Source: an uncultured Bacilli bacterium
GTDB taxonomy: Bacteria > Bacillota_I > Bacilli_A > RF39 > UBA660
Assembly: GCA_934096125.1 (NCBI GenBank)
Contig: CAKOLB010000004.1
Span: 55,117 to 119,116, forward strand
DNA length: 64,000 nucleotides
Direction: 5' to 3'
How positions within the stretch are numbered: position 1 is the first letter of the stretch; every line of letters starts with the position of its first letter. Positions 6,192-51,840 of the stretch are shown here, in pieces. Under the pieces are notes generated by a model. It made no database searches and was not told the origin of the DNA. It saw only the letters and a list, made by a program, of their open reading frames with translations. The position numbers were made by a program, and so were the translations under genes.

Positions 6192-6216
6192 TAAAAAAAA
6201 TAAAACATATAATTAA

Positions 6217-6803: not shown

Positions 6804-6849
6804 GTTGTCTTTTTTTGATATACTAATTAAAGATTTGATGGGGTGGAAA

Positions 6850-7134
6850 ATGAAAAAAACAAGGAAAGAGAAGAAGAGACTTATTACGATTAGCTTGATT
6901 ATTATGTTTATGCTTGTGTCTTTGGTAACTTCTGTTGCTAGTGACTGGACTAAAATTTTAGAAAATAAAAGTAAGATAGAGTCTTTAAATGTCAAGTATA
7001 ATACTTTGCTAAGTGATGAAGAGAAGCTTGTTAGTGAAGTAACTAAACTTCAAGATACTGATTATATAGCAAGATATGCTAAAGAAAAGTATATGTATTC
7101 AGCAGATGGTGAAACAATTATTAGAATGGACTAA
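6850..7134 (+). CDS. divIC: septum formation initiator DivIC/FtsB-like protein
   Basis: Basic N-terminus, one TM segment, then a coiled coil, in the syntenic position after yabQ. RBS GGGGTGG precedes the ATG at 6850. The listed ORF start at 6739 is probably too far upstream. Confidence 0.6.
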
Positions 7135-7709
7135 ATAATATTTTTCTTAAGTATTTCATCAATTAATCCATACTCGAGGGCTTCATCAGCGCTTAGAAAG
7201 TTATCTCTTTCGGTATCATTATAGATTTTTTCCACAGACTTTCCAGTGTTTTGAGCTAGTATTTGATTTAATTTTTCTTTAAGTTTAATAATTCTTTCAG
7301 CGGCAATTTTGATATCACTTGCCCGCCCACTTGCACCACCTAGAGGTTGGTGAATCATGACTTCAGTATTTGGTAAAGCATATCTTTTATCGCCACTTGA
7401 AAGTAAAAAGGCTCCCATACTTGCACAAAGACCAAGGCCAATGGTTATTATTTTGCTTTCAGTATACTTCATAGTATCGTAAATAGCCATACCAGCGGTG
7501 ATAGCTCCTCCAGGGCTGTTGATATAAAGGTAAATATCATCATGACTTAGGTTATCAAGATAAAGAAGCTGACCGATGATATTACTTGCCAAATTATCCT
7601 CAATTTCACCACTTAAAAAAATAATTCGGTCCTTTAAAAGACGAGAGTATAAGTCAAAGGCATACTCTTTATTGCTAGTTTTTTCAATTACTGTAGGTAT
7701 TATGTTCAT
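7131..7709 (-). CDS. clpP: ATP-dependent Clp protease proteolytic subunit
   Basis: Catalytic-serine motif GLCASMGAF, His motif MIHQP, 192 aa. Confidence 0.9.
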
Positions 7710-7813
7710 ATTTTTGTCTCCTTATAAGTAAATAATAGTAAATATATTTAAATTTTATTCACAAGAACTAAAAAAATTGATATAATTGTTATTAAGAATA
7801 GAGGGAGATAATA

Positions 7814-9457
7814 GTGAGCTATTTTGAAGTTGAATTTGATGGTGTGAAACATAAATATCCTCAAGGTACTTTGTTTTATGAAGTATCTAAGGCTTCTAAA
7901 AAAGAAAATATAATGGCTTATAAAATAGGTAATGAAGTGTTTTCTTTAGATGAAAAAGTAAATAAAAATGTTAAGATAGAGTTTATAAATACGGATGATA
8001 TAATTGGTAATAAGATATATAAAGCAGGACTTAAGTTTTTGTTTGAAGTGGCTCTTTTGGAGTGTTTTCCAAATTTAGAAGTTACTTATGAACATAGTGT
8101 GCCAAGAGGAATGCTTGCTCATGTATCAGGAGATAAAGTTTTAACCCAAGATGATATTTCAGTAATTAAGGGAAAGATGAGTGAGATAATATATAATAAT
8201 GATAAAATTATAAAGCTTAATATTTTGCCGAAAGAGGCGATTAATTATTTTTATCATCATTCTTTGTATGAAAAGGCGGAAAATATCCAAAATATAAGTG
8301 ATAGGGTTGTTAATTTTTATAGTTTGCGGAAAAGACTTAATTATTTTTATTCACTTATGCCTTATAATACTGGTGCTCTTAATAAGTTTGAAATAGTATA
8401 TTTAGGAAAAAATAAGTTAATATTTTTGTTCCCAACTGTTAAAAGTCATGGAAAAGTGCCAGAGTATGTGCATTATGCTAGTATCTTAGAAAGCTTTTGG
8501 GAAGGTAAAAAATGGCTTAATCAAATGCATATTCCTTATGTTTCCGATTTAAATAAATTAGTTGGTAATGGAAAGATTAAAGATTTTATTACTTCTTCTG
8601 AGCTTAAGTTTAACTTAAACATTTCCAAAGTGGTAAAGGATGTGCAAGCAAGAAAAGATATTAAGTTCATTTTGATTGCGGGTCCATCATCTTCAGGAAA
8701 GACAACGACGACCTCAAGAATTGCGAATTATTTTGCGGCTGAAGGGTATGATACAATTAAAATAAGTTTGGATGATTATTTTCTAGACCGAGAAAAAAGT
8801 CCAAAGGATGAAAATGGTAAGTATAATTTTGAATGTTTAGAAGCTTTGGATGTTTCCCTTTTTAATCAAGATTTAAATGATTTACTTATGGGTAAGGAAG
8901 TGTTGCTTCCAAAGTATAATTTTTTAACAGGGAAAGGTGAAAAGGGAAAAGAAAAAATTTCTTTAAAAGAAAATAGTATTGTTCTAATTGAAGGACTTCA
9001 TGCTTTAAATGAAGAACTTACGAAGTCTATTGCATCAACATATAAGTACAAAGTGTATTTAAGTCCATTTATTCCTCTTAGTATCGATAGACATAACTAT
9101 ATATCAACTCTAGATATGCGGCTTTTAAGAAGAATGGTTCGTGATAATAGAACAAGAGGTTATGAAGTTACAGCGACAATTGATAGTTGGCAGAGCGTTC
9201 GAAGTGGAGAAGAAAAATATATTTTTCCATATATTCATGAGGCTGATACAATTGTTAATACGGCGCTTCCCTATGAAATTGGGGTGCTGAAAGTTTATGT
9301 GCTTCCTCTTTTGTTATCAGTTGATGTAAATTCTATTTATTATGAAGAGGCAAGAAGATTAGTGGATTTCTTAAAACAGTTTTTTCCTATTCCAGGAGAA
9401 TATGTTAATGATGAATCAATATTACGCGAGTTTATAGGAGGTAAATATAATGATTAA
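7814..9457 (+). CDS. uridine kinase/phosphoribulokinase-family P-loop kinase with N-terminal TGS-like domain
   Basis: Walker A motif IAGPSSSGKTTT about 280 aa from the N-terminus. Overall 547-aa architecture matches clostridial 'Udk-like nucleoside kinase' proteins. GTG start with RBS GGAGGGAG. Confidence 0.55.
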   Translation: MSYFEVEFDGVKHKYPQGTLFYEVSKASKKENIMAYKIGNEVFSLDEKVNKNVKIEFINTDDIIGNKIYKAGLKFLFEVALLECFPNLEVTYEHSVPRGMLAHVSGDKVLTQDDISVIKGKMSEIIYNNDKIIKLNILPKEAINYFYHHSLYEKAENIQNISDRVVNFYSLRKRLNYFYSLMPYNTGALNKFEIVYLGKNKLIFLFPTVKSHGKVPEYVHYASILESFWEGKKWLNQMHIPYVSDLNKLVGNGKIKDFITSSELKFNLNISKVVKDVQARKDIKFILIAGPSSSGKTTTTSRIANYFAAEGYDTIKISLDDYFLDREKSPKDENGKYNFECLEALDVSLFNQDLNDLLMGKEVLLPKYNFLTGKGEKGKEKISLKENSIVLIEGLHALNEELTKSIASTYKYKVYLSPFIPLSIDRHNYISTLDMRLLRRMVRDNRTRGYEVTATIDSWQSVRSGEEKYIFPYIHEADTIVNTALPYEIGVLKVYVLPLLLSVDVNSIYYEEARRLVDFLKQFFPIPGEYVNDESILREFIGGKYND

Positions 9458-33251: not shown

Positions 33252-34187
33252 GTGAAGTTAAAGACATTTAAAACCTTAGATGAACAAATAGATATTCTAA
33301 CAAAAAAAGGATTAGTTATTGAAGATACTGAGGCTGCTAAAAATATATTGCTTCGAGAGAATTATTTTTTCTTAAGTGGTTATCGTCATTTATTTATGGA
33401 TCCAAGTAATAATAAACGTTACTTAGAAAATACAACATTTGAAGAGTTATTTGCAATGTTTACTTTTGATAGACAACTTAGAAATATTATTTTTAAAAAT
33501 ATATTAATTGTGGAAAATAATTTGAAAAGTATACTGGCTTATGTGATGAGTAAAAACCATGGTTTTAAAGAACATAATTATTTAAATCCAAATAATTTTA
33601 ATAATGACCCTAGACGAAGTAAACAAATAAATGATTTAATAAGAAAGATGAAAAGGCAAATAACTGTTAATGGTAAACAACATACAGCGACTGCTCACTA
33701 CCTATATAATTATGGTTATATTCCTTTATGGGTTGTTGTAAAAGTCTTATCATTTGGGATAGTTGGAGAACTTTATACTGTGCTTCAGCATCAAGACCAA
33801 CAAGAAATTGCCGATGTTTATGGTATTTCCATTGATAATATGGTTTTATATTTACCACTAGTTGCTAATTATCGTAATTTGTGTGCTCATGAAGATATAT
33901 GTTATATAAACAGAACTCAAAAGGAGATTGAAAACACCAAATACCATCGTCTTTTGTATATTCCTTTAGCAAGTGGGGAGTATATATATGGTAAAAATGA
34001 TTTGTTTGCTCTGGTAATAATATTAAAACAATTGCTTGATGCTGATAATTTTAATCTATTTATAAGTGAAATAGCATATGAATTTGATAGACTGGCAGGG
34101 AAGCTTAAAGTAATAGAGATTGAAAAGGTTATGCATGAAATGGGATTTCCAAATAATTATAAAGAAATAGTGAGGTTAGAAAAATGA
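33252..34187 (+). CDS. Abi family protein (AbiD/AbiF-type, Abi_2 domain) abortive-infection protein
   Basis: N-terminal pattern LDEQIDILTKKGLVIEDTEAAKNILLRENYFFLSGYRHLFM…FDRQLRNIIFKNILIVENNLKS is characteristic of the Abi_2 (AbiD/AbiF/AbiD1) family. GTG start. Confidence 0.7.
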   Translation: MKLKTFKTLDEQIDILTKKGLVIEDTEAAKNILLRENYFFLSGYRHLFMDPSNNKRYLENTTFEELFAMFTFDRQLRNIIFKNILIVENNLKSILAYVMSKNHGFKEHNYLNPNNFNNDPRRSKQINDLIRKMKRQITVNGKQHTATAHYLYNYGYIPLWVVVKVLSFGIVGELYTVLQHQDQQEIADVYGISIDNMVLYLPLVANYRNLCAHEDICYINRTQKEIENTKYHRLLYIPLASGEYIYGKNDLFALVIILKQLLDADNFNLFISEIAYEFDRLAGKLKVIEIEKVMHEMGFPNNYKEIVRLEK

Positions 34188-38867: not shown

Positions 38868-41136
38868 ACCAAATAGAGGGACTGGAAAAGCTAAGGATTT
38901 TAAGGGAGCGCTTAAAAGACTATTTAAAGAATTAAAAGAGTTTCGAGTGCTAGTTTCTATAGCAATGGTTTTGGCTGTTGTCTCAGCAGTTTTGACTATT
39001 TGTACTCCTAATATTTTATCTGATTTAACGGATAAGATATCTGAGGGACTAGTAATAAATAAAGATAATTTTGAAAAAATTACTAAAGAAGTAACGGGCT
39101 CATTTAGTCAATCAAAAATGGCTAGTATCATGGCGATGGATTTAAGCGATAAAAAAATGATGAGTTTATTTTTAGATAGTAGTATTTCGCCAGAAGATTT
39201 GGAAAGTTTTCAAAAAATAACTAAGTCGCTTCAAAATACTAGTGATGAAAGTGAACAGATGAAGTTAATTGCTAGCATTCCATCTAGTATTTTGGCGAAA
39301 GTTTTAAACCAAGATGATAAAATAAGTATTCAAGATAAAGTAACATTTATTAAAAGTATGGGTAGTGATTTAGTTATTCCTGATAGCATTGCTAGTAGCT
39401 TATTTACAGAGTTTTCTATTGATGGTGTAGTAATTACTAGTAGTGATTCTGCTAGATTTATGGAAATGCTTAGTACGGTAAAGGATGAAGATGTAAGTCT
39501 TTTATATAGTAAACTAGATAAGTTACCTGATAATATAAAAGAAGTAGTAAAGCCTGTTTTGGATATGGTAAAAATTAAAAGTATTGCTCTTACACTTGTT
39601 GTTATTTACTTAATTAGTGCGTTATTTAATTATATTGAATCTATATCTATGACTAGTGTTTCGAATAATTTTGCTCGTCGTATTAGAACAAAAATATCAG
39701 AAAAGATTAATGCTTTACCACTTAAATACTTTGATAAACATGCAACTGGTGATACTCTTTCAAGAGTAACTAATGATGTTGATACAATTGCCCAGTCGAT
39801 GAATCAGTCATTGTCAACTTTAGTAAGTGCTGTAACATTATTCTTAGGAACAGTCCTAATGATGTTTGTGACAAACTGGGTTATGGCATTAACAGCGATA
39901 ATTGCAAGTTTACTGGGATTTATCTTTATGGTGCTTGTTCTTTCTAAATCACAAAAATATTTTGTCGCTAAACAAAAAGGTTTAGGAAATTTAAATGGAC
40001 ATATTGAAGAGATATATTCAGGACTTATGGTAGTAAAAGCTTATAATGGTGTGAAAGATGCAACTGATAAATTTAATAAATTAAATTATAATTTATATAA
40101 TGCTAATTGGAAAAGTCAATTTTTATCAGGTCTTATGATGCCAATGATGGTATTTATTGGAAACTTTGGTTATGTTGCAGTATGTATTGTTGGTGCATTA
40201 CTTGCAATGAAAGGTTATATTAGTTTTGGTGTTATCGTAGCATTTATTGTGTATGTTAGATTGTTTACATCACCTTTATCACAAATAGCTCAAGCGATGA
40301 CAAGTTTACAATCTACTGCAGCGGCAAGTGAAAGAGTGTTTGAATTTTTAGATGAAAAAGAGATGAGTAGTGAAGAAAAAGTAACTAAACATTTAGATAA
40401 AGATAAAGTTAAAGGAAAGATAGAATTTAAACATGTATCCTTTAAATATGATGGTAATGATAAGCCGACGATTAATGATTTTAGTGCTATTGCAAAACCT
40501 GGTCAAAAGGTAGCGATTGTTGGACCTACTGGAGCAGGAAAGACAACCATGGTTAATTTGCTTATGAAGTTTTATGATATTAATGATGGGGAAATACTTA
40601 TTGATGGAGTATCAACTAAAGACTTGACAAGAAAAAATATTCATAGCTTGTTTACGATGGTTCTTCAAGATACTTGGATTTTTGATGGAACTGTAAAAGA
40701 AAATATTGTATATAATCAAAGTGATGCAAGTGACTATGATGTGCGAGAAGTTTGTAAGACTGTTGGGCTTGATCATTTTATTAAGACGTTACCTAGTGGT
40801 TATGATACAGTTATTAGTGAAGATTTGATTTCGGCAGGACAAAGACAACTTTTAACAATTGCTAGGGGAATGATGCAAAATGTGCCTTTCCTAATTTTAG
40901 ACGAAGCAACTAGTAATGTTGATACTAGAACGGAAGAATTGGTTCAAAAAGCGATGGATAAACTTACGGAAGGAAAAACTTCATTTATAATTGCCCACAG
41001 ATTATCCACAATTAAAAATGCAGATTTAATATTAGTTATGAAAGATGGTAATATTATTGAACAAGGTGATCATGAAAGCCTTCTTGCTAAAAAAGGATTT
41101 TATGCTGATTTATACAATTCTCAATTTGAGTTATAG
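38860..41136 (+). CDS. ABC multidrug-type exporter, fused permease/ATPase subunit 2 with large extracytoplasmic insertion
   Basis: NBD with Walker A GPTGAGKTT, signature ISAGQRQLL and Walker B LILDEATSNVD. About 190 aa of hydrophilic sequence inserted between TM1 and TM2. Start overlaps the stop of subunit 1. Confidence 0.8.
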   Translation: MPRPNRGTGKAKDFKGALKRLFKELKEFRVLVSIAMVLAVVSAVLTICTPNILSDLTDKISEGLVINKDNFEKITKEVTGSFSQSKMASIMAMDLSDKKMMSLFLDSSISPEDLESFQKITKSLQNTSDESEQMKLIASIPSSILAKVLNQDDKISIQDKVTFIKSMGSDLVIPDSIASSLFTEFSIDGVVITSSDSARFMEMLSTVKDEDVSLLYSKLDKLPDNIKEVVKPVLDMVKIKSIALTLVVIYLISALFNYIESISMTSVSNNFARRIRTKISEKINALPLKYFDKHATGDTLSRVTNDVDTIAQSMNQSLSTLVSAVTLFLGTVLMMFVTNWVMALTAIIASLLGFIFMVLVLSKSQKYFVAKQKGLGNLNGHIEEIYSGLMVVKAYNGVKDATDKFNKLNYNLYNANWKSQFLSGLMMPMMVFIGNFGYVAVCIVGALLAMKGYISFGVIVAFIVYVRLFTSPLSQIAQAMTSLQSTAAASERVFEFLDEKEMSSEEKVTKHLDKDKVKGKIEFKHVSFKYDGNDKPTINDFSAIAKPGQKVAIVGPTGAGKTTMVNLLMKFYDINDGEILIDGVSTKDLTRKNIHSLFTMVLQDTWIFDGTVKENIVYNQSDASDYDVREVCKTVGLDHFIKTLPSGYDTVISEDLISAGQRQLLTIARGMMQNVPFLILDEATSNVDTRTEELVQKAMDKLTEGKTSFIIAHRLSTIKNADLILVMKDGNIIEQGDHESLLAKKGFYADLYNSQFEL

Positions 41137-41528
41137 AGAGGAAACTTCAGTTCATGCTAAATAAAAAACATATTTAGTTTGAATAGTAAAAAGTGTTAAG
41201 TTTTTCTCTTTTTTTTTACAGTAAATAAGAGTAAAATTTTTAATTATTTAAAAATAAATTAAATATATTAAAAATAATTATATCTATTTTTTTCTTTTCC
41301 AAATGAAATTTTCTTATTACGACAAAAAAACAAATAATTACAACTCATAGAATGATGTGTGATCACTTCAAAAGAAATTTTTTGCTCTTGTTGAATTTTT
41401 TTGCTTGGCGATGATATAAATTACTTAGGTGGTAAGTATTTACAATATAAGAAAATATGATAAACTAGTTATACCAAGTATGACTATAACTTTAAGATTA
41501 AGTTAGTAGTTTAGTGGTGGAGGATGTT

Positions 41529-42089
41529 ATGTTCGAAGTAGAATTAAATTATATACGAAATGAGAGAATAAGGGAGAGTGCTAAAGTTTTAATTGATGGA
41601 TTGCCAGAGTACTTTTTTCGGATTGCTGCCTCTTCAACGGGAAAATATCATCCTGCTTTTGCCTTGGGTGAAAGAGGTTTAGTAAGACATACTAAAGTAG
41701 CGGTGAGAATAGCGTATGAGTTATTTCAGATTATACCTTATGATCGTTTATTTTCTAGTGATGAAAAAGATATTATGATATTAAGTTTATTGATACATGA
41801 TGGAATAAAAAAAGGATTTACTGAAGAAAGATATACTAGGTTTGATCACCCTAATTTGATAGCAGATTATGTGGAGTTAAATAAAGGGAAAACTAGGCTC
41901 AGTGAAAAAGAGATAGATTTAGTAAAGCATGTTTTAAACTCCCATATGGGAAAGTGGAATACAAATCCTTATAGTAAGGTTGTGCTTAAGCTTCCAAATG
42001 ATAAATATCAATATTTTGTGCATATGTGTGATTATTTAGCTAGTCGTAAGTTTTTAAATGTTAATTTTAATGGTGATAATATAGAATAA
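41529..42089 (+). CDS. HD-domain protein
   Basis: HPAF…LLIHDGIKK motifs consistent with an HD phosphohydrolase fold. RBS GGAGGA before the ATG at 41529. Confidence 0.5.
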   Translation: MFEVELNYIRNERIRESAKVLIDGLPEYFFRIAASSTGKYHPAFALGERGLVRHTKVAVRIAYELFQIIPYDRLFSSDEKDIMILSLLIHDGIKKGFTEERYTRFDHPNLIADYVELNKGKTRLSEKEIDLVKHVLNSHMGKWNTNPYSKVVLKLPNDKYQYFVHMCDYLASRKFLNVNFNGDNIE

Positions 42090-42190
42090 AGATGGTAATA
42101 GTTGAAATAGCATAAGGTGCTAAGCAGATAAAACAATGTTAAATAATTTTTGGGATATTTCGTTTTTTGAAAAAAGGCATATAATATCTT

Positions 42191-42238
42191 AGGTGATAAC
42201 ATGAATGATAGAGCTTTAAAAAAGGTGGTTTTGGATGC
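42191..42238 (+). pseudogene. fragment A (codons 1-16) of an interrupted CwlC-type N-acetylmuramoyl-L-alanine amidase gene
   Basis: ATG at 42191 encodes MNDRALKKVVLDAGHG, the canonical start of the Amidase_3 domain (xDAGHGG), then diverges into element sequence (RYCYSTQ*). Preceded by a promoter-like CATATAATA. Confidence 0.7.
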
Positions 42239-42373
42239 CGGACATGGGAGATACTGTTATTCTACACAATGAATAGAAACTATCAGAACTAGTTGATTTA
42301 CATGAAAATTAAACTTTAAAGAGATATTTGAAAAAGTATCTCTTTTTGCATATTAAAAAAAAGGGGGAATTAT

Positions 42374-43633
42374 ATGAGTTATGCAATATTTAGAAGTCAA
42401 CCAATAAATACACTACAAGATTTAGCGCAAATTGGTTCACACAATAAAAGAGAAAAGAAAGCTTATAAGAGCAATCCAGATATAAAATTAGATAGAAGTA
42501 AGGATAATATAGAATTAGTAAAATGTGCTGAAAAATATGTTAAAAGATTTTACGAATTAACTAAAGACTATAAAAAAGAACATGAAGAAAGACAAAAGAC
42601 AATGCGAGAAGATAGAAAAAAATCCTATTATAAAATGCTTAATGATGCTAGAAATGTAGTAGCAGATGAATTGTTATTTACAAGTGATAGTTTATTCTTT
42701 AAAGATAAAAGTAAGAAAGAAATATTAAGGTGGGCTAATACTTGTATGGATTTTGTTTATAATGATTTAGGTTATACTAAAGAACAGGTATTACATTCTA
42801 CTATTCATATGGATGAAAAAACACCACACATTCATTGTGTAGTGATTCCACTAGTTAAAAAATTAGATAAAAGAACTAATACAGAAAGATATACTATCTC
42901 AAAAAAGCAATATATCAAAAATAACGAGCATTTAAGTGAATTACAAGATAAATACCATAATAGATTAGTTAAGGCTGGTTTTGATCTAGAAAGAGGTTTA
43001 AAAGGCAGTACAGCAGAGAATATAAATATAAAAGAATTTAAAAAAATGACTAGAAGGTTAGATAAGTCATTAGAGAAAAGTACACTATTATTAAATGATG
43101 ATTATAATGACTTAAAAGTTAAATTAAATAAAAGTAAACCTACAATAACTGGCAAGGAAGTTAAAATAGATAAAGATACTTATCAAACATTAAATAAATT
43201 TATGAGTACGGCTAAAAGAATAATAGAAGATATTCCTAAAACACAATCAATGGTAAAAACTTTAGATGAGTATACCAAAATCTTTAGAAGTACGCAAAGA
43301 GAGAATATTCAATTAAAGAAAGAAGTAAATAGACTTGAATTAGAAAAAGAAGAAATCAAACAAGAAAATAATAGACTAGAAAATCTTATGTATAATTTAC
43401 TTCAAAGATTAAAAGATTTATTTAAAAAAATTCTTCATATAGGTACTGATAAAGAAAAAGATAATGTATCAAAAGAAATAAAGTATCATTATGATAATAA
43501 TTATTATAACGATTTAGATTTATGCTATATTTCTAAGGGAACAACTAAAGAAAGAGATATATTTGAACACATTGGTTATATCAAAAAAGGGTATAACAAA
43601 GAAAAAGAAGAAGATTTTGATATAAATAGATAA
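42374..43633 (+). CDS. MobV-family (Mob_Pre) plasmid recombination/mobilisation relaxase
   Basis: N-terminus MSYAIFRSQPINT… and the HxDExxPHxH motif (STIHMDEKTPHIHCVVIP) are typical of pMV158 MobM-like relaxases. Confidence 0.75.
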   Translation: MSYAIFRSQPINTLQDLAQIGSHNKREKKAYKSNPDIKLDRSKDNIELVKCAEKYVKRFYELTKDYKKEHEERQKTMREDRKKSYYKMLNDARNVVADELLFTSDSLFFKDKSKKEILRWANTCMDFVYNDLGYTKEQVLHSTIHMDEKTPHIHCVVIPLVKKLDKRTNTERYTISKKQYIKNNEHLSELQDKYHNRLVKAGFDLERGLKGSTAENINIKEFKKMTRRLDKSLEKSTLLLNDDYNDLKVKLNKSKPTITGKEVKIDKDTYQTLNKFMSTAKRIIEDIPKTQSMVKTLDEYTKIFRSTQRENIQLKKEVNRLELEKEEIKQENNRLENLMYNLLQRLKDLFKKILHIGTDKEKDNVSKEIKYHYDNNYYNDLDLCYISKGTTKERDIFEHIGYIKKGYNKEKEEDFDINR

Positions 43634-43699
43634 GTCAAAACAAAAACGGACTTTTTTCGTGGTATAATAAAGAAAAACTTGTTATTTTTGGAGGTAGTT

Positions 43700-45910
43700 A
43701 TGAACAAAGAAAATAAAATTATAAATTTTAAAAATGAAGATTCAAAGAAAAATATTTCTTTAGAATTAGATAAAAAAATGATTTTTATTTACGGTAAAAA
43801 TGGTAGTGGCAAAACAACTTTTTCTAGATCGAACGATTTGGATAAAAAATATGTATTTAATGAAGACTTCGTATATAAAAATGTTTATATAATAGACGCT
43901 GAAGGAGCAAAAATTGATTCAGGTGTTAAAAATAATTTTTCAGAGTTGCTTGTTGGAGAAGATGTTGTTCTATTAAAAGAAAAACAAAATAAATTAGAAG
44001 AAATATATAAAGAATTAAATACTAAAAGTAATGATAATGAAACATTTATCAATTCTAGTTTAGCAAGTAATGGTATTCCAAACAGTTATAATTTTTTAAA
44101 GGAAAAAGTTGATGAAACTTTTAATTATGATGAAACAAAAACAATCGAAGAACAAATGGAGATATATAAGAGCGATTTAGAATTGGAACAGACTATTACA
44201 AATGATAAAGAGTTAGAAATCAATGTGAATCAAATAAAGAAACATGAGAATATTAAATTATTAATAGAAAAAATAAAAAAAATACCATTGTTAGAGGAGT
44301 TTCTTTTTTCAGAGGATTATCCAATACTATTGAAACTTAATTCTGATTTAGACATTATTAATACAAATATTCAAAACATTAAAAGTTTAGAAGAGTTAGG
44401 GAAAAAGAAAAGGGTAGAAAAAAATGATTTTTCTATTATAAGAGATTGTATAACATTACAAGAAAAAGTGGGAACTGATATTTGTGTATTATGTGGTAAT
44501 ACTGAAATTAAAGCAGGTATAGAAGAATGGAAGAAAATATTTCAGGACAAAACAGTAAATTTAAAAACGAAAGTAATATCAGAATTAAATGATATTCTAA
44601 AAAATTGTAAAACTATTATTGATGATAGAAAAGTATATGAACCTGTTGCACCTGGTACTATTAACAATATAATAATATTTATAGGAATTATAGAAAACGC
44701 TTTAAAAGAAGTGAATTTAGGCAATGTTTTAGAAATTAAATATCAAGAAATCGTAAGAGAAAAATATACTGAAGACATTATTCAAAAGTATAAAACTATT
44801 GCAAATTACGTATTAAAGAAATATAAAGATAAAACTATTTTCTTAAATTCATCACTTAAAAGTGTAGGTGGTAAAATAAAAGTAATAAAAGAAAACATAG
44901 AAAAAATTTTAAAGCTAAATGCTGACACCCATAAAGAATCAATAAACTCTATTCTTAAAGATTTGGGATTAGATAAAGAAATAACCGTTGGTGTTGATAG
45001 ACTAGGCGGTAAAATAAAATATTCACTAAATGTAGTTAATAACAATTTATCAAAATTGAGTGATGGGCAAAAACATAAATTAGCTTTGGCAATATTTTTA
45101 AATACTATTAAAAATGAAGATTTAAAAGGTAAAACAGTTGTGTTTGACGACCCTGTTGTTGCGCTTGATGAACTAGGATATCACTTTTTTAAACAATATG
45201 TTATAAAAAATATAATGAATAATCCTAACATAGAAGAATGCCCTAATCTTATTATATTAACTCACAACTTTAATTATCTTTATATACAAACAAGTAATAT
45301 AATAATTAGTCCTAATTTACAAGACAATACAAAAATATTGAAATTAAATTCAGATGGATTTAAAGAATTAGATTTTGAATTGTTTAAATTAGATGATATC
45401 GCATTATTTAAAAAATGCTTAGATAATATTAAGTATGAAGATGAATTGATAGACTTAAGTAGTTTATACAATAAAGTTTTTAGAGAATTTTTGGATTTAA
45501 AACTAAGAATACTTGGAAATCCATTAAATGGTAATCCAGCAGAAGAAATAAAGATAATAGTATCTGATGAACAAACAAGAAAATTGTTGCAGGAACAAAG
45601 TAATAAGTTAAGTAGTTATTCAAAAAATAAAAATATAACAATAGAAGAATCGAAAGAAGGTTTTTGCTTATTATCAGATATGCTAAAGACAATAGGGTTT
45701 GATGAATATATTCTGCCTCAAAACATTGATTCAATTAAAAATATTGTAAAGAGGGAAGAAATAATTTATTCAGATATATTTTATATTATTCATGAAATAG
45801 CAAATATTTTAAGAAATGAAGATAATAAATATAAAAATTATATAAATTATTTAAATCATCCAAGAATATCATTTACTAAAAATATGATGTCAACATCTAT
45901 GGATGCATAG
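43700..45910 (+). CDS. large AAA_13/ABC-type ATPase (PrrC/RloC- or Abi-like), candidate defence protein
   Basis: Walker A IYGKNGSGKTTF near the N-terminus. Long coiled-coil/insert region. Distant signature/D-loop LSDGQKHKLALAIFLN…VVFDDPVVALD. C-terminal about 250 aa unassigned. RBS GGAGGT before the ATG at 43700. Confidence 0.55.
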   Translation: MNKENKIINFKNEDSKKNISLELDKKMIFIYGKNGSGKTTFSRSNDLDKKYVFNEDFVYKNVYIIDAEGAKIDSGVKNNFSELLVGEDVVLLKEKQNKLEEIYKELNTKSNDNETFINSSLASNGIPNSYNFLKEKVDETFNYDETKTIEEQMEIYKSDLELEQTITNDKELEINVNQIKKHENIKLLIEKIKKIPLLEEFLFSEDYPILLKLNSDLDIINTNIQNIKSLEELGKKKRVEKNDFSIIRDCITLQEKVGTDICVLCGNTEIKAGIEEWKKIFQDKTVNLKTKVISELNDILKNCKTIIDDRKVYEPVAPGTINNIIIFIGIIENALKEVNLGNVLEIKYQEIVREKYTEDIIQKYKTIANYVLKKYKDKTIFLNSSLKSVGGKIKVIKENIEKILKLNADTHKESINSILKDLGLDKEITVGVDRLGGKIKYSLNVVNNNLSKLSDGQKHKLALAIFLNTIKNEDLKGKTVVFDDPVVALDELGYHFFKQYVIKNIMNNPNIEECPNLIILTHNFNYLYIQTSNIIISPNLQDNTKILKLNSDGFKELDFELFKLDDIALFKKCLDNIKYEDELIDLSSLYNKVFREFLDLKLRILGNPLNGNPAEEIKIIVSDEQTRKLLQEQSNKLSSYSKNKNITIEESKEGFCLLSDMLKTIGFDEYILPQNIDSIKNIVKREEIIYSDIFYIIHEIANILRNEDNKYKNYINYLNHPRISFTKNMMSTSMDA

Positions 45911-46067
45911 TCTTTTTTGAAAAATGGATATATAAAGATACATTTTAGTAACACACTACGATATTGACAGAGCCAATAACGATGTGTGCCAAGGGGATTG
46001 TCCCTTTGGAAACCCTATTAGCTCTATCGCCACTTTCATTGCTAAAGCAACAAAACGTGCCACGAGC

Positions 46068-46101
46068 TAAAAAGACTGACAAAAATTAATTGTCAGTCTT
46101 T
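46068..46101. terminator. bidirectional rho-independent terminator
   Basis: AAGACTGACAAaaattaaTTGTCAGTCTT hairpin flanked by A/T runs, between convergent genes. Confidence 0.65.
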
Positions 46102-46361
46102 TCTGATGGAATATCATCAAATAGTTGTCTGATGTCTATTCCTAAAGCATCAGCAAATTTACCTATGGTTTCTAATGTTGGAGTTTTATCAATGCTTAAG
46201 CATTCTAAATCTCGAACATATCCATGAGTCAGTTCAGTTAAATCAGCTAATTCTTGAAGTGTATAACCACGTATAAGTCTGTATTTTCGAATGTTTTTTC
46301 TAACTTGAATAGATAAAATTGTTTTTGAATATCTTCTCATAGAAGTTATACACCTCCTCAC
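46086..46361 (-). CDS. XRE-family helix-turn-helix transcriptional regulator
   Basis: IRGYTLQELADLTELTHGYVRDLE HTH_3-like motif. About 85-91 aa. Confidence 0.65.
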   Translation of the reverse strand: MRRCITSMRRYSKTILSIQVRKNIRKYRLIRGYTLQELADLTELTHGYVRDLECLSIDKTPTLETIGKFADALGIDIRQLFDDIPSEKTDN

Positions 46362-46448
46362 ATTTAAATTATTTCATAAAAATTTTAAAAAATATGTCGC
46401 CTGACAGAAGTTTTTGTGATATAATTAAAATGAAAGGAGACTGCTTTT

Positions 46449-46925
46449 ATGAAGAAATGCAAATATTGTCAAACTGAAATTGACTCAAAAGCAAAAATTT
46501 GCCCAAACTGTAAAAAGAAACAAGGTAAACCAAAATGGTTAATAGCTTTAATTGTTATTATTGTAATAATGATTATTGCATCTGTTGCTGGAGGTAACGA
46601 AGAGAATGCTAAGGAAGGAAATGTTTCAAACGGAGGTAATAAGCCAACAGAAAAATTTACTTATGAAGTAACAAAACAATATGCAGATGAATATGGTATG
46701 TCTTATTATATAGAAGGTAGTGTAAAAAATAATAAGGATAAAGATTATTCATATGTTCAAATTGAATTTGTTTGCTATGATGCAGAAGGCAATAACCTTG
46801 GAACTGCTATTGATAATACAAATAATTTACTAGGAAATCAGACTTGGAAATTTAAAGCAATGGCTATGTTTAGTGATGCTGAAACTGTTGATCATTGCGA
46901 TTATCATGAAATAACAAGCTGGTAA
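46449..46925 (+). CDS. hypothetical zinc-ribbon membrane-anchored protein
   Basis: CKYCQ…CPNC zinc ribbon and one TM segment, followed by a small extracellular domain. Confidence 0.45.
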   Translation: MKKCKYCQTEIDSKAKICPNCKKKQGKPKWLIALIVIIVIMIIASVAGGNEENAKEGNVSNGGNKPTEKFTYEVTKQYADEYGMSYYIEGSVKNNKDKDYSYVQIEFVCYDAEGNNLGTAIDNTNNLLGNQTWKFKAMAMFSDAETVDHCDYHEITSW

Positions 46926-46932
46926 AATAGTT

Positions 46933-46958
46933 GGAAGTCTTTTTAAGACTTCTTTTTG
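46933..46958 (+). terminator. rho-independent terminator
   Basis: GAAGTCTTTTTAAGACTTCttttt: hairpin followed by a T-run. Confidence 0.6.
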
Positions 46959-47035
46959 TTAGATTTTTTTACCAAAATAGTCGTTTTATATTTGTTTTAT
47001 GTTATAATAATATTTAATGAAAAAAGGGTGGTTTT

Positions 47036-47335
47036 ATGTATCAATTATTGAGTTTATTCAGTTTTCTTATTAGGGCATATTTGTGTTATTGCACAATAGA
47101 TAATATTCCAATATTAGCTAATCCGATATTAAATAGTATTTTAGGGGAAGTAATATCCTTATATACTATTTTGTGGGCAATAAGTTATTTTGTTGTTGGA
47201 AGATTTTATGATAAAGGTTCTGAACCCTTGTTAGGTGTTATTTTATATTTTATTGTATATGTTGTAATTCTGGGAATTACATATTTATTGTTGTTATTAT
47301 TAACATATATTGGAGTTTTACCAATAGTTATATAA
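47036..47335 (+). CDS. hypothetical small membrane protein
   Basis: 99 aa, 3 predicted TM helices. Confidence 0.35.
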   Translation: MYQLLSLFSFLIRAYLCYCTIDNIPILANPILNSILGEVISLYTILWAISYFVVGRFYDKGSEPLLGVILYFIVYVVILGITYLLLLLLTYIGVLPIVI

Positions 47336-47338
47336 ATA

Positions 47339-47368
47339 AAAAAACTTATCGTTGTGATAAGTTTTTAT
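47339..47368. terminator. bidirectional rho-independent terminator
   Basis: AAAAACTTATCgttgtGATAAGTTTTT hairpin between convergent genes. Confidence 0.6.
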
Positions 47369-47904
47369 AGGTTTATTCTATCATCAGGTAATTTTGAGTA
47401 ATCATATTTTTCAGCACACATTTCTAAATCTTCGTAAATAGAGGTTAATTGTGCTAATATTTTTTCGGGTGGAAGTAATTCTTTATAATAATCATAATCT
47501 TTAAGTAAAAGCATCATTTGGAATATTCTTGTTCTGCAATCAGCAACTTTAGTTCTTTTCTCATAAGAATCTTCTAATAAATCCAATTGAGATTCTCTAT
47601 ATTGTTTTACTAATTCCTTTATATTTTTAGGAGTTTTATGTTTTGAAGTGTCTTTGAAACTATCTAGAATATCACTATAACCAGCAGTAGTTAAAAGAAA
47701 TTCTAAACTTATTTCTAATACTTCAGATAAACTTCTTAACATATCTATATCTGGTTTTTTAATATTACCTTTTTCAAGTTCATTATATGTAGAGTGATGT
47801 GTATTGATTAAACGAGCTACTTTTCTTTGAGAGTAGCCTTTTTTTGTTCTAGCAGTCCTTAATATTTTACTTAATTCTTCAAGATTAGCATTATTATTTT
47901 CCAT
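47365..47904 (-). CDS. XRE-family HTH regulator with C-terminal extension (repressor-like)
   Basis: N-terminal HTH (KGYSQRKVARLINTHHSTYNELEKG) plus about 110 aa of C-terminal domain. Divergent from a Rep-like ORF, forming a phage-like regulatory module. Confidence 0.6.
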   Translation of the reverse strand: MENNNANLEELSKILRTARTKKGYSQRKVARLINTHHSTYNELEKGNIKKPDIDMLRSLSEVLEISLEFLLTTAGYSDILDSFKDTSKHKTPKNIKELVKQYRESQLDLLEDSYEKRTKVADCRTRIFQMMLLLKDYDYYKELLPPEKILAQLTSIYEDLEMCAEKYDYSKLPDDRINL

Positions 47905-48116
47905 TTAAACCACCTCTAAAATGCTTTCTTCCAATAACATAATACCATAACGAAAATTAAAAAGCAATAATTTTGTCGGTTATTCTTGACAAAATTATAA
48001 TTACAATGTATATTATAGTTGTCGGGCAATCTTGACAAAAAAGGGGGATAGTAATAAAGTAGATTGCTAATGCGACTAATGTTCTTTGAAAATTTACACA
48101 AGTCTTTAAAGGTTAA

Positions 48117-48650
48117 TTAAAAGGGGGTGATAGCATAACAGAATCTATAAAAGATGGGTTTTGGATTATACCTGCAAAAGTAGGTATAGATGATGCACTC
48201 ACATTACAAGATAAATTACTATATGCTCAAATCTTATCATTAACAAGACAAGATGGATTCTGTTTTGCTACTAATTCTTATCTATCTAATTTAAATAATG
48301 TTACTCCAAAAACAATTTCTAACAGTATTTCTAATCTTAAAAAAAATAATTATATACGAGTTGAATATCACAAGGAAAAAATAAATAAAGATAAAAGAAA
48401 AATATTTGTAACTGATAAGGGGGTATGGAAAACAAATCCTGGGGATATAGAAAAAAATGTTAATACCGGTATGGAAGATAATTTCCAATATAATAATATA
48501 AAGAATAAAAAGATAAAAAAATATAATACCAATAATAATGTTCCTTGGTGGCTAGATAAAGAAATTAAAGAAAATCCTGCATCTCTAGAAGAACAAGCAG
48601 AGATGGAAGCACTACTAAGCGAATTTAAAAAAGATTGAAAAGGAGTTGGT
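48117..48650 (+). pseudogene. DnaD/phage-replisome-organiser-like winged-helix protein lacking a canonical start codon
   Basis: Open frame from 48117 translates to …ITESIKDGFWIIPAKVGIDDALTLQDKLLYAQILSLTRQDGFCFATNSYLSNLNNVTPKTISNSISNLKKNNYI… (replication-initiator N-terminal wHTH). A strong RBS AAGGGGGTGA is present, but there is no in-frame ATG/GTG/TTG until 48469. Confidence 0.35.
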
Positions 48651-48937
48651 TTTATAAATAAATACAAGACTAAATCATAAAATTTAATAAAAAGGAAAAG
48701 GGGGAATTATAAGAATGGAGGTAGTACTTAAGGCAAAACACACATTTAAAACTGATATATCAAACGAAGAATTATTTAGAGATAGATTTAACGAGATATT
48801 GTTAAAAGTTATATTGCATCTTGAGCAAAATTACCAAAGTAGTTAAAAAAATTATAAATAACTATCAAAAAGGGGTATAATATAAGTTGTAGTCGATTTA
48901 GTTCTGATAGTTATACACAGAATTGGAGGATATAACT

Positions 48938-50533
48938 ATGAGACTAAGAGTTGGTATTTATGGGAGGTTATCACAAGAGGATATAGATAAGATAAACAAA
49001 GAAGATGAAAGTGAAAGTATCCAAAATCAAAAAAGAATGTTATTAGAGTATGCTTTAAAAAATGATTGGGATGTAGTTGATATTTATATTGATGAAGATT
49101 ATTCAGGTGCTGGAGTTTATAGACCAGAGTTTGAGAGAATGCTAAAAGATTGTGAAAATGGAAAACTAGATATAGTTTTATGTAAGAGTCAATCAAGATT
49201 CTCGAGAGATATGGAAATAATTGAAAGATATATAAATAACAAATTTAAAGAATGGAATGTTAGATTTATTAGTTTAGTAGATAATATAGATACTGATAAT
49301 AAATCTAATAAGAAATCTATTCAAATATTAGGACTAACTAATGAATGGTATTTAGAAGATTTATCAGATAACATTAAAAGAACAATTAGGAATAAAAAAG
49401 AGTCTGGACAATTTACTGGTTCATTTGCTCCCTATGGTTATTTAAGAAGTGAAGAAGATAAACACAAATTAGTTATTGATCCTATTGCTTCAATCATTGT
49501 TAAAAAGATATTTGAAATGTATAAACAAGGTAATGGTTATACTAAAATAGCAACTTATTTGAATGATACTAATGTTCCTAGTCCTTATGAACACAAAAAA
49601 GCAAGTGGTAGTAAATTTGTATGTGGAAATGTTGGAAAGGAAAAATCATATTGGTATTCAGATACAATTGCTAAAATCTTAAAAGATGAAGTATATATTG
49701 GAAATCTAGTACAAGGAAAAACAAGGCATATAAGTTATAAAAATAAAAAATCAGTTCCTGTTCCTAAAGAAGATTGGATAATTGTTAAAAACACACACGA
49801 ACCTATAATAGATGAAGATACTTGGAATATAGTTTCTGCTAAATTTAAAGGTAGGACAAAGCCAAGTAAATCTGGGGAAATTCATATGTTTACTAAAAAG
49901 GTTTATTGTGATTGTTGCAAAAAAATATTTTATAATGGTTATTCTAAATCAGGAAATGGGAACAAGCATTATTATTTAACTTGTAAGTCTAGAAAATCAG
50001 GGGTGTTTTGTGAAAATAATCTATCTATTAGAGTAGATAAATTAAAAGACTTTATCCTTAATGAGATTAATGAATATATCAAAGTTTATCATAATTCTAA
50101 AGCTTTAAATGAGAAATACCAAAAATTAAATACTAAGAATAATAAAAATGAGATTCAAGAACAAATTAAAACTTTGGAAAAACAACAAACTGAATTAGAA
50201 AAATCACAAAGTAAAAAGAATTCTTATTTAAGAAAATTATATGAAGATAGAATAGAGGGTTTCATTACTGATGAGCAATACAAAGCTTTTAGTAAAGACT
50301 ATGATGATGAATTAAATGAATTGCAAAACAGAATTCAATTAATAAAAGATGAAATCACTCTCTTAAATCAAAGGCACAGTGATATGATTGATAGAGATAA
50401 AATATTTAATAAATATAAATCTATAAAGGAATTAGATAGAAGTATATTAGATGATTTTATAGAAAAAATATATATCGGTGCAGTAGATAAAGAAACGAAT
50501 GAACGAGAAATAAATATTGTATGGGCCATATAA
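48938..50533 (+). CDS. large serine recombinase (SpoIVCA/CisA/TndX-like) of element 1
   Basis: Resolvase catalytic domain (VGIYGRLSQED…SRFSRD with catalytic Ser), recombinase domain, Cys-rich zinc ribbon (CDCC…C…C) and C-terminal coiled coil. Ends 42 bp before amidase fragment B. Confidence 0.85.
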   Translation: MRLRVGIYGRLSQEDIDKINKEDESESIQNQKRMLLEYALKNDWDVVDIYIDEDYSGAGVYRPEFERMLKDCENGKLDIVLCKSQSRFSRDMEIIERYINNKFKEWNVRFISLVDNIDTDNKSNKKSIQILGLTNEWYLEDLSDNIKRTIRNKKESGQFTGSFAPYGYLRSEEDKHKLVIDPIASIIVKKIFEMYKQGNGYTKIATYLNDTNVPSPYEHKKASGSKFVCGNVGKEKSYWYSDTIAKILKDEVYIGNLVQGKTRHISYKNKKSVPVPKEDWIIVKNTHEPIIDEDTWNIVSAKFKGRTKPSKSGEIHMFTKKVYCDCCKKIFYNGYSKSGNGNKHYYLTCKSRKSGVFCENNLSIRVDKLKDFILNEINEYIKVYHNSKALNEKYQKLNTKNNKNEIQEQIKTLEKQQTELEKSQSKKNSYLRKLYEDRIEGFITDEQYKAFSKDYDDELNELQNRIQLIKDEITLLNQRHSDMIDRDKIFNKYKSIKELDRSILDDFIEKIYIGAVDKETNEREINIVWAI

Positions 50534-50575
50534 TTTAGTCCATACAGGACTTGTGTAGAATAAACATAACCTCCA

Positions 50576-50815
50576 CATGGTGGTGATGATCCGGGGACTA
50601 TTGCAAATGGAATAACTGAAAAAGATTATACTTTGAAGATAACAAATTATATTCACAACAGATTAGATGAACTTGGAGTGCCAAATAAATTATCGAGGAG
50701 TACTGATGAGACTTTAGATGCCAGTAGTAGGCCACAGAGAATACAAAGTCTTTATGGAAATGGGAGTGATGTGATTGTTGTGTCTAATCACATAAATGCA
50801 GGGGGACAGGACGCG
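50576..50815 (+). pseudogene. fragment B (about 80 codons) of the interrupted amidase gene
   Basis: Encodes HGGDDPGTIANGITEKDYTLKITNYIHNRLDELGVPNKLSRSTDETL…SDVIVVSNHINAGG(QDA*). This matches the Amidase_3 segment between the first Zn ligands (GHGG-DPGA-GNG-EK-TL-I) and the HxNxGGG motif. Same frame as the listed ORF 50633-50818. Confidence 0.7.
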
Positions 50816-50928
50816 TAATATGTGGTTAATCGTAGGCGCAGTGTATAACTTTAATAAGCTTCTTATTTTACTGTATATGATGGTATAATAGATATATCAA
50901 ATAACTTTAAAGATGAGAGGTGAAAAGA

Positions 50929-51840
50929 ATGTTATATATAACTGGTGATACTCATGGAGATTTTTATAGATTTGGTCATTTAGGATTAAATGAAGGTGAT
51001 ATTATGATTATCTTAGGGGATGTGGGTATTAATTATTACTTAGATGAATATGATAAAAAGTTAAAGGAAAGATTAAAAAGATATAATTTTAAATTTTTCT
51101 GTATTCAAGGTAATCATGAAAAAAGACCAGAAAATATTTCAAGTTACCACGAAGTGGAAATGTTTGGCGGTAAAGTATTTGTAGAAGATGAATATCCTAA
51201 TTTAGTATTTGCTAAAAATGGAGAACTTTATAATATTGATGACAAAAGTATTTTAGTAATAGGTGGAGCTTATTCTATTGATAAAGATTATAGAATAAGT
51301 AAAGGATATCCTTGGTTCAAAGATGAACAATTAACTGAGAAAGAGAGACTAAATATATTGGACGAGTATTCTGGTAAACATGTGGATATAATTTTATCTC
51401 ATACTTGTCCATTAAGATATGAACCTAAAGAAAGCTTTAAATTAAGTTTGCCACAGATTGCGATAGATAAATCTATGGAGTATTTTCTAAATGAAGTAGA
51501 GCAAAGAGTAGATTATGGTAAATGGTATTGTGGACATTATCATTTAGAAAAAATTGTGGACAAGTTAGAGTTTATGTTTGGAAGAATTAAAAGTGTTGAC
51601 ACAGGAGAATTTATTCCTAAATATGATTTCCATAATGGCTACAAAATAGTTAGAGATGTATGTAGTCAAAAAGATTATAAATATTGTCCTGAATGTAAAG
51701 GAGATAATATAATTATAGAAAAAGGTGAAGGACATAATATTAATGGTTTAGATTTTATTGCTATCATTTGTAATGATTGTAAAAAAGTTTATGGATTTAA
51801 TGATGTTAATTATAAACGTAATTGTCCTAAAGAATTGTAA
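50929..51840 (+). CDS. calcineurin-like metallophosphoesterase with C-terminal zinc-ribbon
   Basis: YITGDTHGD…GNHE MPP motifs. C-terminal CPECKGD…CNDCKK. Sigma-A-like -10 TATAAT upstream at about 50885. Confidence 0.6.
   Translation: MLYITGDTHGDFYRFGHLGLNEGDIMIILGDVGINYYLDEYDKKLKERLKRYNFKFFCIQGNHEKRPENISSYHEVEMFGGKVFVEDEYPNLVFAKNGELYNIDDKSILVIGGAYSIDKDYRISKGYPWFKDEQLTEKERLNILDEYSGKHVDIILSHTCPLRYEPKESFKLSLPQIAIDKSMEYFLNEVEQRVDYGKWYCGHYHLEKIVDKLEFMFGRIKSVDTGEFIPKYDFHNGYKIVRDVCSQKDYKYCPECKGDNIIIEKGEGHNINGLDFIAIICNDCKKVYGFNDVNYKRNCPKEL

Follow-up and report, generated by a model that had tools for sequence, protein, structure and literature searches.

An apparently divergent RloC-lineage ABC ATPase with a putative nuclease domain on a mobilizable element of an uncultured Bacilli bacterium

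Introduction

RloC-type enzymes are among the few single-protein defences that join a Rad50-like sensor of DNA damage to a translation-disabling RNase. RloC of Geobacillus kaustophilus and Acinetobacter baylyi belongs to the Pfam family AAA_13 and is known as RloC in DefenseFinder and as PDC-S06 in PADLOC; certain B. cereus proteins are classified as PDC-S06 by PADLOC and as RloC by DefenseFinder (PMC11811056, supplementary file 6). The anticodon nuclease (ACNase) of RloC is characterized by the triad R-x3-E-x36-52-H (PMC2610378). Here, we describe a gene at positions 43700..45910 (plus strand) of a 64,000-nucleotide stretch of DNA from an uncultured Bacilli bacterium of the gut (positions 55,117 to 119,116 of contig CAKOLB010000004.1, assembly GCA_934096125.1), which is called the window hereafter. 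RloC is the closest known system to this gene, and the sequence evidence presented below indicates that the gene is not a new kind of system but belongs to a divergent branch of the RloC lineage that had not been described before and whose nuclease end has been rebuilt.

The predicted protein shares with RloC its architecture and size (~700-870 amino acids [aa]), a Walker A motif of the form GKNGxGK[ST], a Rad50-like helical insert bearing the zinc hook H-x5-C-x-F-C-G-N, the signature LSxG[QE]K, a DDP Walker B motif, a THN H-loop and an Arg-x3-acid helix located ~75 residues past the H-loop. Both are single-gene, laterally mobile systems, which are only sometimes linked to restriction-modification (R-M) genes (PMC2610378, PMC3458546). 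In contrast to RloC, the window protein has a C-terminal domain with ~70-90 additional aa and an invariant H-P-R motif at its end, it has a Lys in the column of the catalytic His of the N-S-H motif, and its family is confined to metagenome-assembled genomes (MAGs) of low-GC, Bacilli-like gut bacteria.

PrrC, the tRNA-Lys anticodon nuclease of E. coli (EcoprrI), similarly combines an N-terminal ABC (ATP-binding cassette)-type NTPase domain with a C-terminal R-x3-E...H ribonuclease, which has been classed as HEPN (PMC3710099, PMC2610378), and type I R-M loci also house some members of the family described here. However, PrrC consists of ~400 aa and lacks a coiled-coil/zinc-hook insert, whereas the window protein carries an insert of 335 aa. 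Furthermore, PrrC is invariably encoded within a type Ic hsd locus and is silenced by it, whereas no hsd genes are linked to the window copy, which is located between a relaxase gene and a helix-turn-helix (HTH) gene. PrrC proper, which had been among the options raised in a preliminary description of the window, was therefore ruled out, since it lacks the coiled-coil insert that is present in this protein of 736 aa.

Two further groups of proteins are relevant for comparison. The ABC-HEPN fusions (APECO1_4465-like and ERFG_01251-like; Anantharaman et al. 2013) also consist of an ABC ATPase and a C-terminal HEPN-type domain and are likewise located in prophages or on mobile islands (PMC3710099); compared by description only, they have kept a recognizable Rx4-6H motif, whereas the window family has H-P-R. 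Rad50/SbcC and the Lamassu component LmuB share the logic of head, coiled coil and CxxC hook as well as DNA-end sensing, but they have no fused C-terminal effector and work with separate nuclease partners (Mre11/SbcD and LmuA, respectively), none of which is linked to the window gene.

The gene and the ATPase head of its product

The gene lies in an uninterrupted open reading frame (ORF) on the plus strand with its stop codon at 45908-45910, according to the ORF listing. The maximal ORF, 43679-45910 (plus strand), begins with a TTG codon and encodes 743 aa. An ATG at 43700, 21 bases 3' of this TTG, would give 736 aa; it is preceded at a distance of 5 nt by the Shine-Dalgarno sequence GGAGG (43690..43694, plus strand) and is the predicted true start. 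In public assemblies, the gene calls of the identical protein (P0001; 22 contigs) likewise yield 736 aa. Thus, the coordinates 43700-45910 of the preliminary description stand, whilst the length of 743 aa given with them is that of the maximal TTG ORF. The coding sequence (CDS) is predicted to encode a RloC-family ABC ATPase of 736 aa (Pfam AAA_13) that contains a helical insert bearing a zinc hook and ends in a helical domain. The match to AAA_13 scores 51 bits, as compared to a gathering cut-off of 36, and covers only aa 352-540.

A complete set of motifs identifies the head of the predicted protein as a Rad50-like ABC ATPase. All features of the gene discussed here are on the plus strand. 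The Walker A motif or P-loop, G32-K-N-G-S-G-K38-T39 (43793..43816; string YGKNGSGKTTF at aa 31-41), is invariant in the 43 homologues of the window protein (23-90% identity) that were brought together in an alignment, called A1, and is aligned to G34..K40 of RloC. The ABC signature L-S454-D-G-Q457 (45056..45070) lies within the string LSDGQKHKLALAIFLN at aa 453-468, with S454 aligned to S528 of RloC. Walker B, VVFD483-D484-P485, and the D-loop residue D490 (45134..45169) are found in the string VVFDDPVVALD at aa 480-490; the motif reads DDP, as in RloC, instead of the usual DE. The H-loop T521-H522-N523 (45260..45268) is aligned to T605-H606-N607 of RloC. Every motif that had been quoted before (P-loop, ABC signature and D-loop region) was found in the translation. 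In A1, the invariant residues of the ATPase part are the P-loop, C262, C265, S454, G456, H459, K460, D483, D484, P485, D490 and H522.

Structure prediction with AlphaFold2 of the whole protein (predicted local distance difference test score, pLDDT, 87) yielded a split ABC head with a helical middle part. The earlier impression that a long coiled coil splits the ABC ATPase was supported in that a predicted helical insert of ~335 aa (aa 87-421; 43958..44962) separates the two halves of the ATPase. It comprises a long outgoing helix (87-123) and a long returning helix (376-421), resembling the stalk of Rad50. Midway in the insert, the CxxC motif C262-V-L-C265 (44483..44494; family consensus CxFCGN) is placed by the model in a loop formed by residues 258-269. 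C262 is present in 43/43 sequences of A1 and in 35/35 of a wider set of sequences (n=33-35, depending on the position) obtained by an exhaustive search with a hidden Markov model (HMM), and C265 in 43/43 and 34/35, respectively. The CxFCGN motif is also found in the rows of the published RloC alignment. C262 and C265 thus constitute a putative zinc hook. When the full model was compared with the Protein Data Bank (PDB) using Foldseek, Rad50, SMC heads and Lamassu LmuB were the best matches, together with a retron ATPase.

Homology to RloC

For comparison with RloC, an alignment of 31 RloC-family proteins, called A3, was used, the seed of which is a protein from a TM7 locus that was recovered, among other distant AAA_13 genes, in a genome scan. 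The TM7 protein (L018, 765 aa) and a protein of Verrucomicrobiota (L015, 849 aa) match the PDC-S06 models over their full length with 693 and 962 bits, respectively, and both bear the published RloC signature R-x3-E...(S)H. Among the homologues of the TM7 protein, one was named 'wobble nucleotide-excising tRNase' by JGI, and staphylococcal proteins have the size of the listed RloC of S. aureus. In A3, R682, E686 (>90%), N713-S714-H715, F740 and H748 are invariant, which amounts to the pattern R-x3-E-x28-NSH. Because of the full-length score of the seed on PDC-S06 (693 bits), the tRNase-named member and this pattern, the proteins in A3 can be regarded as genuinely belonging to the RloC family.

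Alignment of A1 with A3 using hhalign gave a probability of 99.9% and an E-value of 7e-32 over 564 columns; a local re-run gave E = 6e-31 over 598 columns. In the residue pairs obtained, K38 of the window protein corresponds to K40 of A3, the hook residues C262, C265, G266 and N267 to C259, C262, G263 and N264, S454 to S528, D483-D484-P485 to D559-D560-P561, D490 to D566, H522 to H606, R595 to R682 and D599 to E686. The distance between the H-loop and the Arg is 73 residues in the window protein vs. 76 in RloC. Since these pairs extend from K38 through D599, the homology of the predicted protein to RloC begins at the P-loop, includes the zinc hook and reaches into the nuclease as far as its first catalytic helix, and the RloC part of the earlier suggestion of a PrrC/RloC-type architecture is upheld by this profile comparison as well as by matches to PDC-S06.

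The confident part of the alignment ends shortly past R603. In a low-confidence extension, N-S-H715 of RloC is opposite S634-N635-K636. The RloC proteins of A3 likewise have an invariant His, H748, located 17 residues from the C-terminus; that H720 of the window protein (see below) is its equivalent is a guess. A search with PADLOC, as had been advised, matched PDC-S06 (RloC-type) models as the only defence models, with a best E-value of 2.8e-13 (47 bits) and a best stretch at aa 353-527, i.e., the C-lobe of the ATPase. A protein search with an approximate, partial sequence of G. kaustophilus RloC, which was rebuilt from optical character recognition text of a supplementary figure, gave no match.

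The C-terminal domain

The domain that follows the ATPase head (aa 552-736, ~185 aa; 45353..45907) is all-helical, consisting of ten helices and essentially no strands, and is a putative HEPN-like nuclease effector. About 250 aa of C-terminal sequence had previously been considered devoid of motifs. This holds for aa 552-736, but the preceding ~60 residues still belong to the ABC head and contain the H-loop. No sequence match to aa 552-736 was found in Pfam, PHROG, NCBIfam or PDB, a Pfam search with 28 C-domain sequences produced scattered noise only, and Foldseek of the domain vs. PDB gave no match with E <1 and no significant match to HEPN. The C-domain appears confined to the family of the window protein, because a profile of it identified only 78 representatives among 1.84 billion proteins, and it was C-terminal wherever the protein was full-length (~730 aa).

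Several positions in this domain are strongly conserved. Beyond the ATPase part, D565/D566, R595, R603 and H720 are invariant in A1, and D599, Y717, R722 and T726 are conserved in >90% of the sequences. R595-x3-D599-x3-R603 (45482..45508) is located on a long helix and is the predicted counterpart of the catalytic Arg-x3-Glu of RloC; in the wider set, R595 is present in 35/35 sequences, position 599 is D or E in 32/35, and position 603 is R or K in 31/35. H720-P-R722 (45857..45865; consensus NYxxHPRxxxT) is found just ahead of the last helix. H720 is the sole invariant His of the domain (43/43 and 33/33 sequences) and is located 16 residues from the C-terminus and 125 residues C-terminal of R595. 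R722 and T726 are present in 29/33 and 31/33 sequences of the wider set, respectively.

The column paired with the catalytic His of RloC in the low-confidence extension, i.e., K636 (45605..45607), contains His in only 10/43 family members, whilst Lys is found in the window protein and in those closely related to it. The ten His-bearing members belong mostly to a clade that is ~33% identical to the window protein and displays the motif S-N-H-L. Thus, an active-site transition may have been caught in progress at this column in the family.

HEPN was judged by two criteria, a helical up-down bundle of ~100-120 aa and an Rx4-6H motif with which the last core helix begins and which is often preceded by Ex3[KR]. 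D599-x3-R603 fits the HEPN-associated [DE]x3[KR] pattern, and HEPN families with variant sites or relocated catalytic residues are on record (PMC3710099). The ratio of nonsynonymous to synonymous substitution rates (dN/dS), determined in comparison with the 90%-identical copy, was 0.13 overall, 0.06-0.07 in the ATPase head and 0.067 in the C-domain. As this latter value is the same as that of the ATPase head, the C-domain can be considered to be under strong purifying selection, functional and not decaying. Its active site has probably been remodelled, and its RNA target may differ from that of RloC.

Genomic contexts, carrier element and distribution of the family

The genomic contexts of nine members were compared, i.e., the window copy and eight others. 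The gene of P0003 (90% identity to the window protein) is located 140 nt behind a type I hsdR gene and is followed by genes for a HigB-like toxin and an HTH/M78-peptidase protein. P0096 (31% identity) is encoded behind hsdM-hsdS-hsdR and P0098 (31%) 16 nt behind an AlwI-type R-M pair. P0022 (45%) adjoins a serine recombinase, P0064 (34%) is on an integrase/Mob_Pre element where it adjoins an AAA_21-RloB pair, P0085 (32%) is found among GmrSD, DUF3800, a Schlafen-like gene and AbiEii, P0090 (32%) among Abi_2, DUF3800, a reverse transcriptase and AAA_21, and P0014 (60%) adjoins RHS toxin genes. Thus, a direct association with an R-M operon is seen in 3/9 members (P0003, P0096 and P0098), whereas the others are on recombinase/Mob elements or in defence surroundings, and no neighbouring gene is common to the nine contexts. 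In loci L025-L028, a gene pair for an AAA_21 ATPase and a RloB-domain protein (6012-7876) was seen immediately 5' of one homologue; pair and homologue share an integrase/Mob_Pre element, next to which type I and type IIG R-M genes are found.

At the nucleotide level, the window and the P0003 locus are homologous only over 43659-45916, from 41 nt before to 6 nt after the CDS. This segment includes an extended -10 promoter-like element, TGgTATAAT (43660..43668, plus strand), which was read from the sequence within the 66-nt spacer 3' of the relaxase gene; it has no -35 hexamer and was not listed in a consensus scan. Because the homology is limited to the promoter-like element, the Shine-Dalgarno sequence and the CDS, the gene is, as judged from sequence comparison, one that moves as an autonomous promoter-plus-CDS cassette. 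The earlier proposal of a standalone defence gene agrees well with these contexts, i.e., with the lack of a conserved neighbour, the R-M, mobile and defence-island settings and the gene-limited homology. The possibility of a two-gene toxin-antitoxin system with the convergent HTH gene located downstream in the window was rejected, as this HTH neighbour is missing from the contexts of the eight other members.

The carrier of the window copy could be delimited, since 42230-50601 is 99.9% identical to an 8.7-kb contig (L034) with different flanks. The gene is thereby located on an integrative mobilizable element of ~8.3 kb (42248..50580, plus strand), in accordance with its initial assignment to a mobile element. 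The insertion site of the element is within an amidase-like gene (ATG at 42201), at the sequence encoding DAGHGG, and the core ACATGG is present at both ends; the junctions are covered by 42201-42247 and 50573-50860 of the window and by 1-204 and 8577-8688 of L034. The copy in L034 interrupts the gene of a different host at the equivalent motif. The recombinase appears to target a conserved coding motif. Besides the ATPase gene, the element carries genes for a MobV relaxase (42374-43633, plus strand; NCBIfam 109 bits), two HTH regulators, two small membrane proteins and a large serine recombinase (48938-50533). The genes for the membrane proteins (46449-46925 and 47036-47335) are located between those for the two HTH regulators and may be further cargo; the product of the former has an N-terminal zinc ribbon and matches phrog_14275 (E = 3e-30) and, faintly, a superinfection-exclusion PHROG.

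The GC content of the ATPase gene is ~23% vs. 26-33% in the flanking kilobases. The downstream gene (46086-46361, HTH_3) is convergent, and a 13-bp hairpin between an A-run and a T-run (46070..46102, no strand; -16.1 kcal/mol, z = -5.25) is found in between, consistent with the earlier notion that a terminator separates the two genes. The hairpin looks like a bidirectional terminator shared by both, and it was not listed by a pattern scan. The 175-nt 3' spacer (45911-46085) has a higher GC content than its surroundings and folds better than shuffled controls (z = -3.5 and -3.7 for the two strands). It includes a 46-nt motif (45940..45985, plus strand) that is 96% identical to a segment (2802-2847) 3' of a diverged homologue in locus L001, where the gene-wide nucleotide identity to the window gene is only 79% and the alignment ends exactly at 45985. 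The 46-nt core contains an imperfect hairpin, and GTGTG follows it in the window copy only. An Rfam search of 41000-51500, including the spacer, yielded no match. The spacer or its core could be an origin-of-transfer (oriT)-like site, a small RNA or a cassette boundary.

Other defence-related genes were noticed in the window, the 3' half of which is rich in such genes. When the element is taken out in silico, the amidase-like ORF nevertheless ends after 94 codons (~50860), and the segment 50580-59322 resembles a second inserted defence island past this stop. It contains genes for a metallophosphoesterase, a BglII-like endonuclease, an HTH_36 protein, a MutH/Sau3AI-like endonuclease (minus strand), a C5 cytosine methylase, a 321-aa protein without family and a 797-aa DEAD/ResIII helicase. 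Just outside the element, 41514-42089 encodes a protein of 191 aa that matches phrog_5889 (function unassigned; E = 5.5e-48) and, weakly, HD-domain/Cas3-HD-like families. In the precomputed annotation of an identical contig, the 311-aa product of 33252-34187, a gene upstream of an ABC exporter pair, is assigned the Pfam domain Abi_2 (AbiD-like).

A search among 5.8 billion proteins identified 108 clusters, nearly all of 720-770 aa and matching 98-100% of the query. Almost all members are unnamed; a few have generic labels such as 'AAA family ATPase'. The genomes in which they are encoded are MAGs, most of them from gut samples, that belong to uncultured Bacilli, Erysipelotrichaceae, Acholeplasmataceae, Mycoplasmatales and Clostridia. 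Occurrence of the family is sporadic and rare. No match was found among the plasmids of PLSDB and the phages of INPHARED, either by megablast of the element or by tblastn of the protein. The ATPase protein had nothing above the cut-off in NCBIfam, neither the protein nor its C-domain matched PHROGs, and sequence searches of PDB, whether with the protein or with profiles of the family or the C-domain, returned generic ABC motifs or noise only.

Proposed function and alternative explanations

On balance, the gene probably encodes a divergent ABC-ATPase/nuclease fusion of the RloC lineage that functions as a self-contained, single-gene anti-phage module of the abortive-infection type. An RNA-nuclease mechanism, and nuclease activity as such, we infer from the analogy with RloC (PMC3458546, PMC3874168). 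In analogy with that system, the hook and the DNA-dependent ATPase would hold the C-terminal RNase silent until it is switched on by DNA ends or DNA damage resulting from phage infection or restriction failure. The released RNase would then cleave RNA, be it tRNA anticodon loops or other species, through a metal-independent His/Arg/acid chemistry, and, as an outcome, translation would stop. A fusion with a TOPRIM domain as in OLD/Gabija-like systems, which had also been suggested, was ruled out because the C-domain is all-helical and no TOPRIM match was found in Pfam or PADLOC.

Several observations weigh against an RloC-like nuclease. The catalytic His of RloC is not conserved, with only two of the three positions of the triad being represented in the window protein, i.e., R595 and D599, whilst the His column is occupied by K636. 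Comparison of the profile of the distal 130 aa of the C-domain with the tail of RloC was not significant (probability <1%). The profile of the C-domain matched nothing outside its own family among 1.84e9 proteins, and the PDC-S06/RloC HMMs match only the C-lobe of the ATPase with 47 bits, as compared to 693-962 bits for true members. Finally, the Rx4-6H motif of HEPN is absent, since the motif is H-P-R and no Arg is present 4-6 residues before H720.

In view of these differences, it is possible, albeit tentatively so, that the proteins form a separate ABC-ATPase/zinc-hook clade that has abandoned the His of RloC. A new site would then be made up of the Arg-x3-Asp helix and H-P-R in an enlarged HEPN-like domain, with a different RNA target or mode of cleavage. 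If so, the system would differ in target or cleavage from any characterized anticodon nuclease and would represent a defence gene specific to wall-less, low-GC gut Bacilli that is missed or only partly flagged by current models.

The main alternative, which appears unlikely, is that the protein is an RloC-derived sensor ATPase of which the C-domain no longer is an RNase but a DNA- or protein-binding module or an effector with another chemistry, with defence being exerted via binding or sequestration of DNA or via recruitment in trans of a host nuclease, e.g., a neighbouring R-M enzyme as in the case of PrrC-EcoprrI. Such a change of function would fit the Lys of the window protein and the variability of the family in the RloC His column, the missing Rx4-6H motif and the lack of a significant HEPN match in Foldseek, and the location of 3/9 members directly behind R-M operons would fit a functional link to restriction enzymes. 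However, the invariant Arg, the invariant His and the conserved acid, together with the dN/dS of 0.067, look like a catalytic set. Also, an R-M operon is not adjacent in 6/9 contexts, the window copy is carried on a mobilizable element on its own, and its homology to the copy linked to type I R-M genes is restricted to the gene itself.

Very unlikely is a role in the service of the element, in which the protein would be an SMC/Rad50-like accessory ATPase for DNA processing, partition, exclusion or transfer of a MobV/serine-recombinase element. Many AAA_13 proteins are indeed annotated as conjugative-transfer proteins, according to a note in Pfam, the ATPase gene is located inside the element immediately 3' of the MobV relaxase gene and on the same strand, and two further members are on elements bearing Mob or recombinase genes. 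However, the copies encoding P0003, P0096 and P0098 are in chromosomal R-M loci, in the vicinity of which neither a relaxase nor a recombinase is encoded, the order relative to mob and recombinase genes varies, the gene is preceded by a promoter-like element and a Shine-Dalgarno sequence of its own, and its closest characterized relatives are RloC-type nucleases.

A housekeeping role in DNA repair or chromosome maintenance, like that of SMC, RecN, RecF or SbcC, can practically be dismissed: although the P-loop weakly matches SMC_N, RecF and AAA_23 and the best fold matches of the whole model in PDB are Rad50 and SMC heads, the former matches are all below curated cut-offs and span ~35 residues only, Rad50 and SMC do not have the extra C-terminal domain, the family is sporadic (78 representatives in 1.84e9 proteins) with mobile and variable contexts, and the gene is on an 8.3-kb mobile element found in another host, with no Mre11/SbcD-like partner. 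A housekeeping protein of the SMC/RecF/RecN type with no effector domain, which the preliminary description had named as the finding that would speak against its proposal, is thus not what was encountered; an extra C-domain is present.

Significance for the family

The present results would hardly surprise a specialist in phage defence and, if the protein is an ordinary RloC with a shifted His, would amount to a modest extension of annotation. For defence annotation, it is relevant that the PDC-S06 models of PADLOC match the family weakly (47 bits, in the C-lobe of the ATPase). The cassette-like movement of the gene links type I R-M loci with small mobilizable elements. The family may be regarded as a natural experiment, in which the catalytic end appears to have been rebuilt, whilst the sensor with its P-loop, zinc hook, DDP Walker B and H-loop has been kept together with the first catalytic helix. 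In this process, the canonical His would have been lost, and another invariant His would have emerged at the C-terminus. RloC-like defence would thereby be extended to poorly studied, uncultured Bacilli/Mollicutes-like lineages of the gut.

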